Positions 52,236-59,369 of a stretch of 59,369 nt of DNA are shown here, one piece after another. The notes under the pieces were generated by a model. It did no database searches, was not told where the DNA came from, and saw only the letters and a list, made by a program, of their open reading frames with translations. The position numbers were made by a program, and so were the translations under genes. Positions within the stretch are counted from its first letter, which is position 1. Every line of letters starts with the position of its first letter. Origin of the DNA: Candidatus Gottesmanbacteria bacterium (GTDB taxonomy: Bacteria; Patescibacteriota; Microgenomatia; UBA10105; UBA927); contig JAZDOQ010000016.1 of the NCBI GenBank assembly GCA_043798445.1, positions 1-59,369 on the forward strand, given 5' to 3'.

Positions 52236-52456
52236 AGATATGGCTTCTTTTAGCGCCTTGTGTATACGGAGATAGTATCGGCTTGATTGCTTCCGACATC
52301 TACACAATTATTCCAACAGTTGTCATTGGATTTCGTATTGTTCAAAACGAAAACTTTTTACTCCAATGTTTTTTTGCACTCTATTTTGCGCAAAAATATA
52401 TTCAAGCACATAACACATCACTCCTGCCTGACAATCTAGACGATTGTTGCGTATAA
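52232..52456 (+). CDS. Hypothetical small protein (74 aa), doubtful
   Basis: The ATG forms an ATGA overlap with the upstream stop, as many real genes here do. Two weakly hydrophobic stretches and no recognisable motif. It fills most of the only large gap in the locus. Confidence 0.25.
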   Translation: MKIWLLLAPCVYGDSIGLIASDIYTIIPTVVIGFRIVQNENFLLQCFFALYFAQKYIQAHNTSLLPDNLDDCCV

Positions 52457-53616: not shown

Positions 53617-54485
53617 TATCAGAAAATACTGATATCATAAATTGTATGTTTGGATCAATATATTCAAATCATCTAGATTATTTAAAGAAATCATTTCGAG
53701 GGATGAATAAGGAATATCATAAGAAAGACAAGAATAAAGCCTCATTCGTCATGGATAAGCTTCAGCAGGCATATATAAAGATTTTTGGCATTCCAGAAAT
53801 AGGTTTTCAAATGAGATATTTTCATTTTAAAAAAACACTCGATATGTGTGGTGAAAAAAACTTGAATAGGATTCTTGACGCAGGGTGTGGAATCGGATGT
53901 TACACAGTTGCCCTTGCTCGTCAATTTAAAAATAGTGCCGTTGTTGGTGTTGATAATTCAAAGAGGAATGTACATATAGGGAAAACACTAGCTCGAGAAT
54001 TAAGATTATCTAATATAGTTTTTAAAACTGGTGATATTTCAAAAAGGACGCTTGAAAGGAAAAAATACGATTTTATTATTTGTATTGACGTGTTGGAGCA
54101 CATTGAGGAGTATCAAAGGGTTCTGAAGAATTTTTATCAAATGCTGAGACCAGGAGGGTATTTGTATATTCATGTACCGCAGATGCACCAAAAGCGTTTC
54201 TTTAAACGGTTCCAAACTTGGAGTCATGAAGGACATGTGAGAGAAGGATTTGTTCCGTCTATTTTTGATAGAGATTTGAAAAAAATCGGATTTCATAAAA
54301 TACGCGTATGGAATACATTTGGAACGATGGGAAGCATTGCATGGGAATTGAATCATCTGGCTTTGTCAAAAAGTTTTGTAATGACTGCATTAATTTATCC
54401 CCTTCTACTTCCGTTAGTCTTTCTTGATCGATTTATAATGAACAGAAAGGGATTAGCTGCGGCGTACCTATACAAAAAGATATGA
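53613..54485 (+). CDS. Class I SAM-dependent methyltransferase
   Basis: Motif I ILDAGCGIGCYTVALA, then DVLEHIEEY and LRPGGYLYIHVP. GTG 53613 overlaps the upstream TGA. An internal ATG is a possible alternative start. Confidence 0.75.
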   Translation: MISENTDIINCMFGSIYSNHLDYLKKSFRGMNKEYHKKDKNKASFVMDKLQQAYIKIFGIPEIGFQMRYFHFKKTLDMCGEKNLNRILDAGCGIGCYTVALARQFKNSAVVGVDNSKRNVHIGKTLARELRLSNIVFKTGDISKRTLERKKYDFIICIDVLEHIEEYQRVLKNFYQMLRPGGYLYIHVPQMHQKRFFKRFQTWSHEGHVREGFVPSIFDRDLKKIGFHKIRVWNTFGTMGSIAWELNHLALSKSFVMTALIYPLLLPLVFLDRFIMNRKGLAAAYLYKKI

Positions 54486-55504
54486 AAAGAAAAATATATC
54501 CAACAATCTCAATATTGACGATTACATACAATCCAAATCCGGCAGTTTTTACTCGTTCACTTGAGTCTATAAAAAAACAACACTATCCAAAAAACAAACT
54601 CGAACATATTATTGTCGATGGGGGGTCTAGAGAGTTAACGATACTTCTTGCAAAAAGGTATGGCTGCACAGTTATAATTCGGAAAGACCTTCGCGATCAA
54701 AGTGAAGCAAGACGGTCATACGCGGTAAAAAAAGCAAAGAATGAAATCATATTATGGTTAGAATCAGATAATATACTTGAGGATACAAATTCACTTTCTG
54801 AACTTGTTCAACCTTTCATAGATGATCCAAAAATCATCTCATCCTTTCCGCTTCACTATGGATATAACAAACATGGATCGATACTTGATCGGTACAGTGC
54901 TTTATTTGGAGGGTGTGATCCAGTAGTCCTTTATTTGAAAAAAACTGATAGAGAACCTTGGTATTCACAAAAATATTCAAAAGGGAAACTTATACGAAAG
55001 AAAAAGGCATATGAAGTGATTCAATTTGATGAGTCTACACTTCCGACGGTCGGGGATAACGGATTTCTGACACGCAGGTCGGTTCTACTTCAAGCTCATA
55101 TACGCCCTGAACAGTATGTGCATATCGATATATATATCGATTTATTGAAACTTGGATACAATCGCTTTGCAGTTGTTCATTCAACGTCAATAGAACACAT
55201 TATTGGAAATAGCCTTATACAACTTCTTCAAAAAAGAATGGTTTACGCGAAACGATTTTCATTATCACCCCATTTTAAGAATAGAAGATATTTTGTATAT
55301 AACAGCAATAGTATAAAAGATAAGGCGCGTTTACTTTTATTTGTGTTTTATAGTTTTACGTTTATACAACCGGTTTGGTTGTCGATTCGTGGATATATGA
55401 TGATCCGAGATCTGTCCTGGTTTTTGCATCCGATTGCTAGCTTTCTTTTTATGCTCTATTATATGAGAACAACATTGCTGTCTATAAATAAAACCAGCAA
55501 ATGA
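54482..55504 (+). CDS. GT2 glycosyltransferase with C-terminal membrane helices
   Basis: Motifs ISILTITYNP and IVDGGS, with ESDN in place of DxD. Two hydrophobic helices near the C-terminus (LLLFVFYSFTFIQPVWL, FLHPIASFLFMLYY). ATGA overlap. Confidence 0.7.
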   Translation: MKRKIYPTISILTITYNPNPAVFTRSLESIKKQHYPKNKLEHIIVDGGSRELTILLAKRYGCTVIIRKDLRDQSEARRSYAVKKAKNEIILWLESDNILEDTNSLSELVQPFIDDPKIISSFPLHYGYNKHGSILDRYSALFGGCDPVVLYLKKTDREPWYSQKYSKGKLIRKKKAYEVIQFDESTLPTVGDNGFLTRRSVLLQAHIRPEQYVHIDIYIDLLKLGYNRFAVVHSTSIEHIIGNSLIQLLQKRMVYAKRFSLSPHFKNRRYFVYNSNSIKDKARLLLFVFYSFTFIQPVWLSIRGYMMIRDLSWFLHPIASFLFMLYYMRTTLLSINKTSK

Positions 55505-55508
55505 AAAT

Positions 55509-56288
55509 ATGAAAACAGTCATTCTCTGCGGTGGGATAGGATATCGTCTTAAAGAAGAAACTGAATTTAAACCAAAACCAATGGTGCTAGTCGGAGGAAA
55601 ACCCATTCTTTGGCATATTATGAAAATGTATAGCCATTATGGGTTTAATGACTTTATCATCGCACTTGGATATAAAGGGAACCTTATCAAAGAATACTTT
55701 TTGAATCAGAAATATTTTTCACATGATTTTTCCTTATCTACGAAGTCTGGTGTGACTTCTATACATAAGAATAGAATAAGTGGAATTGCCGATGATTTTT
55801 ATATTACATTTGTTGATACAGGGGAATCTACATTACCAGGAGAACGAATTCTTCGAATGAAAAACTATATACCGGAAAGTGACAGGAATTTTATGGTTAC
55901 GTATGGTGATGGAGTATCTGATCTTAACATAGCAAAACTTGTTGCCTTTCATAAAAAGCAAAATACCATTGGTACGGTGACAGGGGTTCATCCTCGAAGC
56001 AAATACGGCCTTCTCTCTGTCAACGAACGCCACATCGTGCATTCATTCACAGAGAAGCCAGTTCTTGTGGATTGGGTGAATGGTGGATTTATGGTGTTTA
56101 AACGGAAAGCACTTAATTATTTCAAAGAAAATGAAATGGAGCATGAAGGATTGAAGCGTTTGATTGGTGAAAAACAACTTTCCTTATATATTCACGATAA
56201 GTTTTGGTTTGCCGTGGATACATATAAAGAACTGGAAGATCTCAATACAATGTGGACAAAACAGGAGTCTCCTTGGAAACTATGGTAA
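55509..56288 (+). CDS. rfbF: Glucose-1-phosphate cytidylyltransferase
   Basis: Characteristic N-terminus MKTVILCGGIGYRLKEETEFKPKPMVLVGGKPILWHIMKMYSHYGFNDFIIALGYKG, with length and C-terminal DTYKE..W motif typical of RfbF. Confidence 0.85.
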   Translation: MKTVILCGGIGYRLKEETEFKPKPMVLVGGKPILWHIMKMYSHYGFNDFIIALGYKGNLIKEYFLNQKYFSHDFSLSTKSGVTSIHKNRISGIADDFYITFVDTGESTLPGERILRMKNYIPESDRNFMVTYGDGVSDLNIAKLVAFHKKQNTIGTVTGVHPRSKYGLLSVNERHIVHSFTEKPVLVDWVNGGFMVFKRKALNYFKENEMEHEGLKRLIGEKQLSLYIHDKFWFAVDTYKELEDLNTMWTKQESPWKLW

Positions 56289-57235
56289 AACAAACGGTTG
56301 TTGTCACCGGTGGCGCCGGATTTATCGGGGGTCATCTCGTAGAACTTCTTTTGCAAAAAAAGTACAAAGTCATTGTTATTGATATTCAAAAACGTTGTAA
56401 ATCATACTTCTTTCTTAATAAATTGGATAAAAAGGTTGTCTATAAACGAGTAGATATACGAAAACAAAAGCAGGTAGAACGTTTTTTTGGATCGGTCCAC
56501 CCGGCGTATGTTATTCATCTTGCTGCACAGCCCATCGTTCAGGACGCGTATGATCGTCCGTACGATGTGTTTGATACGAATATTATGGGAACAGTAAACA
56601 TATTAGAGGCTTGCCGAAGAGACAAAAAGATAAAAAGAATTCTTGTTGCTTCCTCTGATAAAGCATACGGAAAAACAAAAAAGACCTATACAGAAAGCTC
56701 GCCGCTTCAAGGTGATCATCCATATGATGTGTCGAAATCCTGTGAGGATTTGATAGCCTACACGTACTTTAAAACATACAATTTGCCCGTTGTTATCACA
56801 AGATTCGGAAATGTGTACGGTGAAGGAGATGTACATTTTGATAGGTTAGTTCCGGGAATATGTGAATCTTTGATAACTAAGAAACCGTTTCAAATTCGAA
56901 GTGATGGAACCTATGTACGTGATTATATATATGTGAATGATGTAGCCGCTGGATATATGACACTTCTTGCAACAAAAAGAGATATTGAAGGAGAAGCGTT
57001 TAATTTTTCCTCAGATGATACGTATTCGGTGTTGAAATTAATCAAACAGGCGGAATTGTCATTGCATGTAAAGATCCCTTACGAGATAAAAAATACTGCA
57101 AAAAACGAAATTCCATATCAACATTTGAACGATACAAAAATTAGATTATTAGGGTGGAGAGGAAGGATGAAATTTGATAAGGTTTTTCCGAAAATTTTTA
57201 CATGGTATCTTAAAAATATTAGTAATGGTGGCTAA
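56282..57235 (+). CDS. rfbG: CDP-glucose 4,6-dehydratase-like extended SDR
   Basis: Motifs VTGGAGFIGGHLV and SSDKAYG, with catalytic PYDVSK (YxxxK). Lies immediately after rfbF with a 7-nt overlap. Assignment as CDP- rather than dTDP-specific rests on the SDKxY motif and context. Confidence 0.6.
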   Translation: MVKQTVVVTGGAGFIGGHLVELLLQKKYKVIVIDIQKRCKSYFFLNKLDKKVVYKRVDIRKQKQVERFFGSVHPAYVIHLAAQPIVQDAYDRPYDVFDTNIMGTVNILEACRRDKKIKRILVASSDKAYGKTKKTYTESSPLQGDHPYDVSKSCEDLIAYTYFKTYNLPVVITRFGNVYGEGDVHFDRLVPGICESLITKKPFQIRSDGTYVRDYIYVNDVAAGYMTLLATKRDIEGEAFNFSSDDTYSVLKLIKQAELSLHVKIPYEIKNTAKNEIPYQHLNDTKIRLLGWRGRMKFDKVFPKIFTWYLKNISNGG

Positions 57236-57256
57236 TCCTCATTACATATATGATAT

Positions 57257-59077
57257 ATGGAAAAAATTAAACTTTCAGACTACATAGTAAAATTTATTGA
57301 GGGAATTGGAGTAAAGCACATTTTTCTAATACCAGGAGGTGGAAATATCCATATCATTGATTCTATTGGAAATAGCAAGCGTATCAAGTATGTCTGTAAC
57401 TATCACGAGCAGGCCTGCGCAACGGGAGCGGAATCATACGCGCGGATAACAGGAAACATCGGGGTTTGTGTTGTTACAACCGGTCCTGGAAGCACGAATG
57501 CAATCACTGGAATGCTCGGCGGGTGGTTAGATTCGATTCCCATGCTGATCATCTCAGGACAGGTGAAGAGAGAACTTCTAGGGAGTGGTAAAGGAATGAG
57601 ACAGCTGGGAGATCAGGAAATAAATATCGTAGATATCGTTAAACCCATAGCAAAATACGCAGTGACCATCATGGATCCAAATGAGATTCGTTATCATCTG
57701 GAAAAAGCCGTGTTTTTGGCAAAAACTGGAAGACCGGGACCTGTATGGTTAGACATACCGCTTGATATTCAAGGATCGTATATCGATCCAAAAGAGCTTT
57801 CATCCTTTGACGAAAGCAAAATAAACGCTGTGGGGAGTGATAGAAAACTTTTGAGGAAACAGGTGACTCTTACGCTTGAAAAATTGAGAAAATCAAAAAG
57901 ACCCGTGCTTTACGCAGGGAACGGCATACGGCTTTCAGGTGGAGCAAAAGAATTTCTTACATTGGTGGACATGCTAAACATTCCCGTACTCACAAGTTAC
58001 GCAGGATATGATCTCATCCCTTCTTCACATCCATGCTTTTTAGGACGTGGACACGCATTCGGTCAAAGAGCGGCTAATTTTATTCTTCAAAATAGTGATG
58101 TTTTTCTTTCCATCGGAGCACGTTTGGACATCAGAACGATTGGGTTTACCTATAAGGCTTTCGCAAGAGGGGCGTATAAAGTAATGGTCGATATTGATAA
58201 GAGTGAGCTGGATAAATTTATCCTTTCGCTGGATCTTAAAGTTAACGTTGATGCAAAGGAATTTATAGAAGAGATGATAAGACAATTGAAGAAGCGACCT
58301 TTAAAAATACATATCACGGATTGGTTTACATATGGAAGAAATCTAAACAGTGCATATCCAGTGGTGTCAAAAGAGTACTGGAAGGATAAGGAATTCGTCA
58401 ATCCGTATTGTTTCATTGAGACAATCGGAAAATATCTTGCGAAGAATGAACTGATAGTCCTATCGGACGGTGTTGGTTCGTTAAATTGTATGTACCAGGC
58501 GTTCTACGTCAAATCCGGGCAACGGATAATCCTGAATAACGGGAGCGCACAGATGGGCTATGGTCTTCCTGCAGCAATCGGTGTAGCGTTTGCTTCAGAT
58601 AATAAAAAGAGGGTGATCTGTCTTGAAGGGGATGGTAGTTTACAGCTGAATATCCACGAGCTGCAGACTATGAAGTATTATAACCTTCCAATTAAGCTTT
58701 TTATTTTTAGTAATGACGGATATCTTTCAATCAGAAATACACAAAATAATTTGTTCGGCGGAAGACATGTTGCCGTTGATTCAAGGTCTGGGGTAAGTGC
58801 ACCGGATTTTGTTAAAGTCGCCAAAGCGTATGGATTTAAGGCGATACGTATCAATAATCATCAGGATATGGAAAAGAAAATACGAGAGGTTTTGAAAGAA
58901 CCAGGTCCAATCGTCTGTGATATCCATGCGGTAAGGAATTTGATGCTCACCCCAAAACTGACCACCAGAGGGCTTCCGAACGGTCAGTTTGAATCGCCGC
59001 CACTTGAGGATATGGGACCGTTTCTTCCACGAGACGAATTTAAAAAAAACATGATTATTCCGTTATGGAAAGGATAA
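57257..59077 (+). CDS. Thiamine-diphosphate-dependent enzyme of the acetolactate-synthase large-subunit family (YerE-like candidate)
   Basis: N-terminal pyrimidine-binding motif TTGPGSTNAITG and C-terminal ThDP motif LEGDGSLQLNIHELQT. 606 aa. Confidence 0.75.
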   Translation: MEKIKLSDYIVKFIEGIGVKHIFLIPGGGNIHIIDSIGNSKRIKYVCNYHEQACATGAESYARITGNIGVCVVTTGPGSTNAITGMLGGWLDSIPMLIISGQVKRELLGSGKGMRQLGDQEINIVDIVKPIAKYAVTIMDPNEIRYHLEKAVFLAKTGRPGPVWLDIPLDIQGSYIDPKELSSFDESKINAVGSDRKLLRKQVTLTLEKLRKSKRPVLYAGNGIRLSGGAKEFLTLVDMLNIPVLTSYAGYDLIPSSHPCFLGRGHAFGQRAANFILQNSDVFLSIGARLDIRTIGFTYKAFARGAYKVMVDIDKSELDKFILSLDLKVNVDAKEFIEEMIRQLKKRPLKIHITDWFTYGRNLNSAYPVVSKEYWKDKEFVNPYCFIETIGKYLAKNELIVLSDGVGSLNCMYQAFYVKSGQRIILNNGSAQMGYGLPAAIGVAFASDNKKRVICLEGDGSLQLNIHELQTMKYYNLPIKLFIFSNDGYLSIRNTQNNLFGGRHVAVDSRSGVSAPDFVKVAKAYGFKAIRINNHQDMEKKIREVLKEPGPIVCDIHAVRNLMLTPKLTTRGLPNGQFESPPLEDMGPFLPRDEFKKNMIIPLWKG

Positions 59078-59078
59078 T

Positions 59079-59369
59079 ATGAATATTCTTTTGACGGGTT
59101 CAAACGGTTTTATCGGTAGCAATATTGCAACACACCTAAAAGGAAAACATACGTTGTTTACTCCAGGCCATAGGGAATTAGACCTGCTTGATGAGGAAGC
59201 AGTGCTAGTATTTTTCAAGAGCCACGCAATCGATCTTGTTATCCATTGTGCATTGGTCGGGGGAAGCAGAAAAGAAGAATATATCCACAGCATGTTTTAC
59301 GATAACATGCGTATGTTTTTTAATATTGTCAGGTGTAAGAAATATTTTCGTAGAATGATCAATATCGGT
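59079..59369 (+). CDS. NAD(P)-dependent sugar epimerase/reductase (SDR), N-terminal fragment truncated by the window end
   Basis: ATG 59079 lies 1 nt after the upstream stop. Rossmann motif MNILLTGSNGFIGSNI. The frame is open to nt 59369. Confidence 0.7.
   Translation, partial: MNILLTGSNGFIGSNIATHLKGKHTLFTPGHRELDLLDEEAVLVFFKSHAIDLVIHCALVGGSRKEEYIHSMFYDNMRMFFNIVRCKKYFRRMINIG

Follow-up and report, generated by a model that had tools for sequence, protein, structure and literature searches.

A predicted biosynthetic cluster for a long-branched CDP-3,6-dideoxyhexose in a Candidatus Gottesmanbacteria genome

Gene content of the cluster and its continuation on a second contig

The DNA analyzed here is a stretch of 59,369 nt (the window) from a Candidatus Gottesmanbacteria bacterium, a member of the Candidate Phyla Radiation (CPR). 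The window is the entire contig C22 of an assembly of 880 kb in 34 contigs, and the nearest protein relatives of this genome are Levy-, Roizman- and Gottesmanbacteria. At its 3' end four plus-strand genes encode a nucleotidyltransferase, a 4,6-dehydratase-like protein, an enzyme dependent on thiamine diphosphate (ThDP) and the first part of a short-chain dehydrogenase/reductase (SDR). These genes and their continuation on contig C5 are treated here as a candidate pathway for a branched sugar. They are preceded by the gene of a family 2 glycosyltransferase (GT2), and the five genes are as follows:

54482..55504, plus strand: GT2 glycosyltransferase, 340 aa; Pfam Glycos_transf_2, one C-terminal hydrophobic segment, 4 nt 5' of rfbF
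55509..56288, plus strand: rfbF/ddhA-like glucose-1-phosphate cytidylyltransferase, 259 aa; TIGR02623, PDB 1tzf
56282..57235, plus strand: compact CDP-hexose 4,6-dehydratase-like SDR, 317 aa; TIGR02622, start revised
57257..59077, plus strand: YerE-like ThDP-dependent carboligase, 606 aa, predicted branching enzyme; TPP_enzyme N/M/C
59079..59369, plus strand: RmlD/Epimerase-type SDR, first 97 of 288 aa; Pfam Epimerase/RmlD_sub_bind, remainder at G000:C5:30526-29960 (minus strand)

The GT2 gene ends 4 nt before rfbF, rfbF overlaps the dehydratase-like gene, and the two following spacers measure 21 nt and 1 nt. The last four genes had been described as tightly coupled in an earlier note on this DNA, and this description is therefore correct. 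The positions and strand given there likewise hold, as does the placement of the ThDP enzyme within a CDP-hexose cassette with a reductase gene after it: the rfbF-like and dehydratase-like genes lie upstream of the ThDP gene and the SDR gene begins 1 nt downstream. The dehydratase-like gene probably starts at ATG 56282 and not at GTG 56252, because the resulting protein has 317 aa like the orthologues of relatives and because this start overlaps the rfbF stop codon in ATGGTAA.

The continuation on C5 was traced by searching the genome with the genes located 3' of the ThDP gene in a Levybacteria relative (locus L002). The end of C22 encodes residues 1-97 of the truncated SDR, and the terminal sequence of C5 encodes residues 97-285 on the minus strand. 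An in-frame 4-nt sequence, CGGT, is common to both contig ends, and the joined open reading frame (ORF) has 288 aa. In reverse complement, C5 harbors the remainder of this SDR followed by genes for a FabG-like SDR, a protein resembling 3-dehydroquinate synthase (DHQS), an HpcH/HpaI-like protein, a split transketolase, a methyltransferase, RfbH and a GT2. The order ThDP enzyme, 288-aa SDR, FabG-like SDR, DHQS-like protein and HpcH-like protein is found on single contigs in L002, L003/L004 and L173. Since the equivalent order is unbroken in these relatives, the join between C22 and C5 is considered sound. The four window genes form the beginning of an operon-like cluster, which an assembly break divides between the two contigs.

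Predicted enzymes for activation, deoxygenation and branching

The ThDP-dependent protein contains the Pfam TPP_enzyme N, M and C domains. Among solved structures it scored 462 bits with JanthE of Janthinobacterium sp. HH01 (PDB 8rph; further entries 8rpi and 8rpj) over residues 3-600, 255 bits with 5ahk (probably PpYerE), about 250 bits with acetohydroxyacid synthases (AHAS) and 172 bits with Gcl. JanthE, the closest solved structure, differs in its ThDP motif, which is CDG, whereas the window protein shows the canonical GDG in pairwise alignment. A family alignment of 59 sequences shows E51 and G460 without exception, and at least 90% of the sequences retain G458 and D459. JanthE is a characterized YerE-like enzyme that accepts ketones (PMC12188165, PMC12247030). 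The best NCBIfam match of the window protein is TIGR00118 (acolac_lg), with 393 bits versus a cut-off of 538. In a library of 1.84 billion cluster representatives, scores above 410 bits were reached by at least 150 clusters (50% identity level), and the family is therefore large and distinct. More than 200 YerE-like clusters are reported to have been found by genome mining.

A FastTree phylogeny was calculated from 82 family members with E. coli IlvI and IlvB as root. The YerE-like family is monophyletic and stands apart from IlvI and IlvB. The window clade is sister to a protein from Campylobacter concisus, which is 47% identical to the window enzyme, in a clade whose members mostly adjoin HpcH-like genes. 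A tree with YerE and AHAS sequences had been proposed in the earlier note. In the present tree the family separates from AHAS; the comparators were E. coli AHAS and family members, among them proteins of metagenome-assembled genomes. As to gene context, ilvC was not found in the genome (87.6% complete) and ilvN is neither of the genes flanking the ThDP gene. The sole other TPP_C protein of the genome is a 284-aa ORF on C25. Sequence comparison thus supports the identification of the protein as a YerE-like sugar-branching carboligase, with a predicted decarboxylative addition of a 2-keto acid to a ketone, and not as an AHAS.

Natural fusions of YerE-like ThDP proteins were also observed (P0129, P0135, P0143, P0163, P0180, P0265, P0136, P0214 and P0215). 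Their partners are N-terminal cupin/mannose-6-phosphate-isomerase-like domains or C-terminal haloacid dehalogenase-type (HAD) phosphatase, methyltransferase or radical-SAM/SPASM domains. ThDP-aldolase fusions were looked for as a Rosetta-stone link, but the fused forms carried cupin, HAD, methyltransferase or radical-SAM domains instead.

The earlier note had recorded the C-3 deoxygenation genes as absent from the window and suggested a search for a DegT/RfbH-type gene downstream of it. Such a gene, encoding a true RfbH/E1, is present on C5 in the same gene string, about 6 kb downstream. With the NF011936 model the protein of 435 aa reached 660 bits, where the cut-off is 423. Among solved structures it scored 499 bits with 3bcx and 3bb8, both E1, but 185 bits with ColD. 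It possesses a C-x57-C-x-C-x7-C motif and the sequence SFYPAH, in which a histidine replaces the lysine that binds pyridoxal phosphate in aminotransferases; this Fe-S cysteine pattern and the His-for-Lys exchange are hallmarks of E1. Of 80 species-representative loci, 39 contain an orthologue of this RfbH (44-58% identity) at most 10 kb away from the ThDP gene.

RfbH-like proteins of a second kind occur in Levybacteria-type relatives (L002:5911-7110 and L003:20487-21731, both on the minus strand). They reach 355-363 bits on NF011936 and keep the histidine, but all four cluster cysteines are lost. Judged by these residues they are of a ColD-like 3-dehydratase design, in place of the Fe-S E1. 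As the Fe-S form occurs here and the cysteine-free form in Levybacteria, the lineage keeps one or the other type of 3-dehydratase.

The rfbF-like protein matches TIGR02623 over its full length with 270.5 bits (cut-off 300.25). Its best solved relative is the glucose-1-phosphate cytidylyltransferase 1tzf, also matched over the full length (201 bits), and the next match reaches 61 bits. The 317-aa SDR scored 180 bits on the CDP-glucose 4,6-dehydratase model TIGR02622 (cut-off 278) versus 177 bits on the dTDP-glucose model, both below cut-off. It is about 30% identical to true CDP-glucose 4,6-dehydratases such as that of C. concisus (L006, 503 bits on TIGR02622), and lacks the insertion and the C-terminal tail of these proteins. 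D126-K127-x-Y129 and Y148-x3-K152 are invariant in the alignment with true TIGR02622 members, which also share an R-x-G-N-x-x-G-x-G-D block with the 317-aa SDR. The Asp-Lys pair is the CDP-enzyme counterpart of the Asp-Glu pair in dTDP-glucose dehydratases. Ten of the 80 loci encode an SDR of this compact type, and the protein is a probable CDP-hexose 4,6-dehydratase by its conserved residues.

In two of the related loci additional genes are inserted in this region. A 128-aa protein of the bAvd/23S_rRNA_IVP family is encoded between the nucleoside triphosphate (NTP) transferase and dehydratase genes (L003:7073-7459, L004:33-422), an odd site for such a gene. Between the dehydratase and ThDP genes lies an archaeal-type phosphoenolpyruvate carboxylase (PEPcase_2, 502 aa; L003:8463-9971, L004:1426-2934), which may provide the HpcH-like aldolase with oxaloacetate, a source of pyruvate enolate.

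Putative side-chain genes and their conservation

The HpcH/HpaI-like protein on C5 (261 aa) shows a weak Pfam match of 24 bits and no sequence match in the PDB. Its family is well conserved, with a mean column identity of 61% in an alignment of 11 phylogenetically spread members. An AlphaFold2 model with a predicted local distance difference test (pLDDT) score of 92 gave HpaI/HpcH class II pyruvate aldolases as best fold matches (E about 3e-9, TM-score about 0.57).

The FabG-like SDR (222 aa, adh_short) is paired with the DHQS-like protein (378 aa). The latter scored 382 bits on TIGR04425 (cut-off 400) and 254 bits on the aroB model (cut-off 305). It shares the fold family of AroB, the 3-dehydroquinate synthase, and all mappable motifs for residues that bind 3-deoxy-D-arabino-heptulosonate 7-phosphate (DAHP), zinc and NAD are kept. 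They are taken to correspond to R130, K152, N162, E194, K250, R264, N268, H271, H275, H287 and K356 of the A. nidulans DHQS. The protein differs from AroB in that it falls below the aroB cut-off, matches TIGR04425 best and has, in glycan clusters, a FabG-like SDR as its constant partner. The chorismate synthase gene aroC was not found in the genome. In the literature available to search, no function was assigned to the DHQS-like/SDR pair, and queries for TIGR04425 and for 5ahk drew nothing.

The split transketolase, consisting of an N-terminal half (278 aa) and a C-terminal half (306 aa), is encoded on the minus strand at G000:C5:25457-27210 (L005:14930-16683). As a separate full-length transketolase is located on C24, the one in the cluster is an extra copy; no transaldolase was found in the genome. 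In relatives a TAL/FSA gene is present in the cluster in place of the split transketolase. Transketolase and TAL/FSA enzymes can both supply erythrose 4-phosphate. Since a sugar-branching role has been proposed for split transketolases of antibiotic pathways in Streptomyces (PMC12247030), the protein may also perform a second C-C bond-forming step.

Co-occurrence of these genes was counted in the 80 species-representative ThDP loci. NTP transferases were present in 40, RfbG-type dehydratases in 39 and RfbH in 39 loci. HpcH-like genes occurred in 14 loci and NeuB-like ulosonate synthases in 19. A HAD phosphatase was found in six loci (five with HpcH, one with NeuB), and the DHQS-like gene in five, always with a FabG-like SDR and never together with HAD. 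When the search was started from the DHQS-like protein, the block ThDP-HpcH-SDR-DHQS was recovered in all four long contigs, with an overlap of the last two genes. The genes for the ThDP enzyme, the HpcH-like protein, the SDR and the DHQS-like protein represent a conserved, translationally coupled block across many phyla. A metagenome scan with the DHQS-like alignment was driven by generic DHQS motifs, and most of its 80 loci were ordinary aroB, leaving about 12 informative loci (at least 37% identity). A plasmid search with the DHQS-like protein returned aroB genes only.

Two metagenome loci contain the DHQS-like/FabG-like pair without a ThDP gene (L091:7494-11083 and L097:8258-11002). Here the pair adjoins a CMP-ulosonate-type cytidylyltransferase (CTP_transf_3) and SIS-domain, sialyltransferase-like and MptE-like proteins. 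This suggests that ulosonic acids serving directly as glycosyl donors are likewise modified by the pair.

The HAD variant of the cluster is exemplified by C. concisus Lasto28.99 (L006, 8157-15547), with the genes rfbF, true rfbG, ThDP, HAD, HpcH-like, SDR and RfbH. This species is cultured and human-associated and would be a tractable model.

Proposed pathway and alternative readings

The closest counterpart of the cluster is the caryophyllose sub-cluster of the Mycobacterium marinum lipooligosaccharide (LOS) locus (MMAR_2329 and MMAR_2331 to MMAR_2336), which has nearly gene for gene the same annotated set. Its annotation comprises a DHQS family protein (MMAR_2329), an aldolase/citrate lyase (MMAR_2331), a ThDP enzyme (MMAR_2332), a GT2 (MMAR_2333), a glucose-1-phosphate cytidylyltransferase (MMAR_2334), RfbH (MMAR_2335) and a CDP-glucose 4,6-dehydratase (MMAR_2336) (PMC12395582 supplement). 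Knock-outs of MMAR_2331, MMAR_2332 and MMAR_2333 each lose caryophyllose (PMC9306805, PMC5706390), a 3,6-dideoxy-4-C-(1,3,4,5-tetrahydroxyhexyl)-hexose (PMC5706390). The 2'-deoxy, 6'-methyl side chain of this sugar has the skeleton expected from a 3,7-dideoxyheptulosonate donor. The cluster analyzed here differs in its compact 317-aa dehydratase, in the inserted extra split transketolase and methyltransferase, and in its CPR host, which has no mycolate envelope or LOS.

Two further pathways are related. In the unifying scheme of Steitz et al. 2022 (PMC9306805), branches longer than C2, as in erwiniose, caryophyllose and gastriose, come from a 4-hydroxy-2-keto acid. A pyruvate aldolase encoded next to the YerE-like enzyme supplies this donor, which the YerE-like enzyme uses, and a reductase follows. 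In the erwiniose cluster of Pectobacterium atrosepticum, the ThDP enzyme ErwE, the reductase ErwF and the pyruvate aldolase ErwI are encoded with dideoxy-sugar genes, and ErwI/ErwJ are a BphI/BphJ-type aldolase-dehydrogenase pair acting on acetaldehyde. The same combination is seen here, with a pyruvate aldolase-like gene in a cluster with the ThDP enzyme and, directly 3' of the ThDP gene, the 288-aa SDR, which is a candidate side-chain ketoreductase and YerF analogue; however, the aldolase is of a divergent HpcH/HpaI type and is accompanied by the DHQS-like enzyme and an SDR. The yersiniose A genes of Yersinia pseudotuberculosis share the ThDP carboligase followed by a reductase (YerE/YerF) in a CDP-3,6-dideoxyhexose context (rfbF/G/H), and the acceptor is probably the same, CDP-4-keto-3,6-dideoxyglucose. 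YerE, a ThDP flavoenzyme, adds a C2 branch from pyruvate, whereas the aldolase/DHQS-like/SDR module predicts a donor of about seven carbons here, and no E3 was found.

As the gene set matches the caryophyllose sub-cluster of M. marinum by annotation, the product is likely a long-branched 3,6-dideoxyhexose and not yersiniose. We therefore consider it probable that the product is a CDP-activated 3,6-dideoxyhexose whose C-4 carries a long polyhydroxyalkyl branch of the caryophyllose type, and that it is destined for cell-surface glycans. The assignment of the proteins to families, the order of the genes, the joining of the contigs and the conserved cassette were observed directly, whereas the substrates and the order of steps that follow are inferred. 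The RfbF-like enzyme would form CDP-glucose, which the compact SDR would convert to CDP-4-keto-6-deoxyglucose. RfbH/E1 would then remove the 3-hydroxyl group with electrons supplied by a reductase. In parallel, the HpcH/HpaI-like class II aldolase would join pyruvate and an aldose phosphate to a DAHP-like 3-deoxy-2-ulosonate phosphate. The aldose phosphate would probably be erythrose 4-phosphate, derived from the split transketolase here or from TAL/FSA in relatives. The DHQS-like protein and the FabG-like SDR would most likely eliminate the phosphate and then reduce the product, leaving a terminal methyl group and an intact 2-keto acid, whereas in clusters of the HAD variant the phosphate would be hydrolyzed. 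The YerE-like enzyme would decarboxylate the keto acid and transfer its acyl unit onto the C-4 keto group of the CDP-sugar, the adjacent 288-aa SDR would reduce the new side-chain ketone, and the methyltransferase and GT2 would finish and transfer the sugar.

For the least conventional of these steps only a tentative proposal is made. The DHQS-like protein (TIGR04425) and the FabG-like SDR may carry out an interrupted DHQS reaction, in which oxidation of a DAHP-like 3-deoxy-2-ulosonate phosphate, phosphate elimination and reduction proceed without ring closure. This would yield a 3,7-dideoxyheptulosonate with a terminal methyl group, form the 6'-deoxy end of caryophyllose-type chains and provide an eliminative alternative to HAD; we regard it as possible but still doubtful.

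Several points weigh against a caryophyllose-type pathway. A DHQS-type reaction on DAHP normally cyclizes the substrate and thereby destroys the 2-keto acid that the ThDP enzyme requires. The similarity to the caryophyllose sub-cluster is a match of annotations and not of sequences, the split transketolase is not conserved in relatives (80 loci), and we know of no glycan structure from any CPR bacterium. The RfbF-like and dehydratase-like proteins score below the NCBIfam equivalog cut-offs, and for this reason their CDP specificity and 4,6-dehydratase activity are stated as predictions. An AscD/RfbI-type E3 reductase (Fer2 and FNR-like domains) was not found in this genome, whose completeness of 87.6% is itself a drawback. 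Its only ORF with an FNR-like NAD_binding_1 domain (C18, 228 aa) is without an Fe-S domain, is unlinked and is unlike the E3-like gene of L011, and searches of the genome with E3-like, HAD phosphatase, NeuB and FGGY kinase queries from other loci gave no matches. However, C. concisus, in which RfbH adjoins the ThDP gene, likewise has no NAD_binding_1 protein in its whole genome, so that the lack of E3 appears normal for such clusters. SpnQ-type homologues of E1 work with general cellular reductases.

In a yersiniose-type pathway, to which the earlier note had drawn an analogy, the ThDP enzyme would add an acetyl branch (C2) from pyruvate and the next SDR would reduce it. The aldolase, DHQS-like protein and SDR would then serve another sugar of the same glycan. 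The order of the ThDP and SDR genes does copy that of YerE and YerF (PMC9306805), and some YerE-like enzymes, among them JanthE and MyGE, accept pyruvate. Nevertheless this reading is unlikely and the earlier analogy probably wrong, since the aldolase/DHQS-like/SDR module is present as in the caryophyllose genes of M. marinum. Moreover, the ThDP-HpcH-SDR-DHQS-like block is conserved and translationally coupled in many phyla, the closest relatives of the ThDP protein are all linked to HpcH, and ErwE, which has an aldolase partner, rejects pyruvate (PMC9306805).

Alternatively, the DHQS-like protein might complete the dehydroquinate synthase reaction. The SDR would then reduce the product, and a quinate-like cyclitol would be made, either to be branched by the ThDP enzyme as its ketone acceptor or to enter the glycan separately. 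Every substrate- and metal-binding motif of DHQS is kept, and cyclization of DAHP is, in established enzymology, largely spontaneous once the phosphate is lost. Cyclic ketones are also accepted by YerE-like enzymes (PMC12247030). A carbocyclic product is nonetheless quite unlikely, as the pair in L091 and L097 stands beside CTP_transf_3 enzymes, which need an intact 2-keto acid sugar, and as HAD phosphatase and the DHQS-like/SDR pair are mutually exclusive partners of the aldolase. In addition, the branch made by the M. marinum locus, which includes a DHQS-family gene, is an open chain that ends in a methyl group.

CDP-4-keto-6-deoxyglucose had been put forward as the acceptor in the earlier note, because RfbH and E3 are absent from the window. 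This absence is correct for the window itself, but the window comprises one complete contig and the RfbH gene is located on the next, C5, while E3 was not detected in the genome either. Without C-3 deoxygenation, the ThDP enzyme would branch this intermediate to a 6-deoxy and not a 3,6-dideoxy sugar, which would agree with the undetected E3 gene and with the six genes between RfbH and the ThDP gene. We consider this very unlikely, because a full E1-type RfbH with its Fe-S ligands is part of the same gene string and 39 of the 80 related loci combine RfbH with the ThDP gene. Furthermore, the cysteine-free ColD-like enzyme of Levybacteria keeps C-3 deoxygenation by another route, and C. concisus also has RfbH without E3. 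The seemingly missing step is an artefact of the contig end. Finally, the idea that the ThDP protein is a housekeeping acetolactate synthase of branched-chain amino acid synthesis whose gene came to lie among sugar genes by chance can be dismissed almost with certainty, although acolac_lg is the top NCBIfam match: the score lies below the cut-off, JanthE (462 bits) far exceeds every AHAS (about 250 bits), the protein lies outside the IlvI/IlvB branch, ilvC was not found in the genome, neither adjacent gene is ilvN, and the neighbors are sugar genes.

A plausible but wrong lead is hereby corrected: the deoxygenation gene was hidden by an assembly break. Nor is the ThDP gene one of amino acid biosynthesis. 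The kind of pathway is already known, and what is newly added is a CPR member with a compact dehydratase and an extra split transketolase. With the caryophyllose-type assignment, this Gottesmanbacteria-like genome joins the organisms predicted to make long-branched dideoxy sugars. The prediction fits the very large glycosyltransferase locus of the genome and suggests an elaborate surface glycan. If the interrupted DHQS reaction takes place, a CPR bacterium would decorate its surface with a caryophyllose-like C12 sugar. The DHQS-like/SDR pair is widespread, and resolving its role would complete the caryophyllose pathway.

The GT2 encoded at 54482-55504 is a candidate transferase for the branched sugar. 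It has a transmembrane-like (TM-like) segment at residues 284-303 and is 61% identical to a GT2 that likewise precedes the NTP transferase gene in the Levybacteria relative L002. In proteobacterial and other cassettes the side-chain genes are followed by those of a flippase resembling GtrA and of a GtrB-like GT2 that ends in two TM helices (L009:14505-15829, L170:9632-13869, L171:1-1015); the window GT2 (54482-55504) differs in type from the latter. These cassettes suggest that the branched sugar is loaded on polyprenyl phosphate there and transferred outside the membrane. Further upstream in the window, positions 52247-52417 in a 209-nt spacer between two GT4 genes matched the central part of a PMT_2 (GT-C) protein in tblastn (47% over 58 residues). 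This protein fills the equivalent position in L002, and the matching segment is probably the remnant of a lost GT-C gene.

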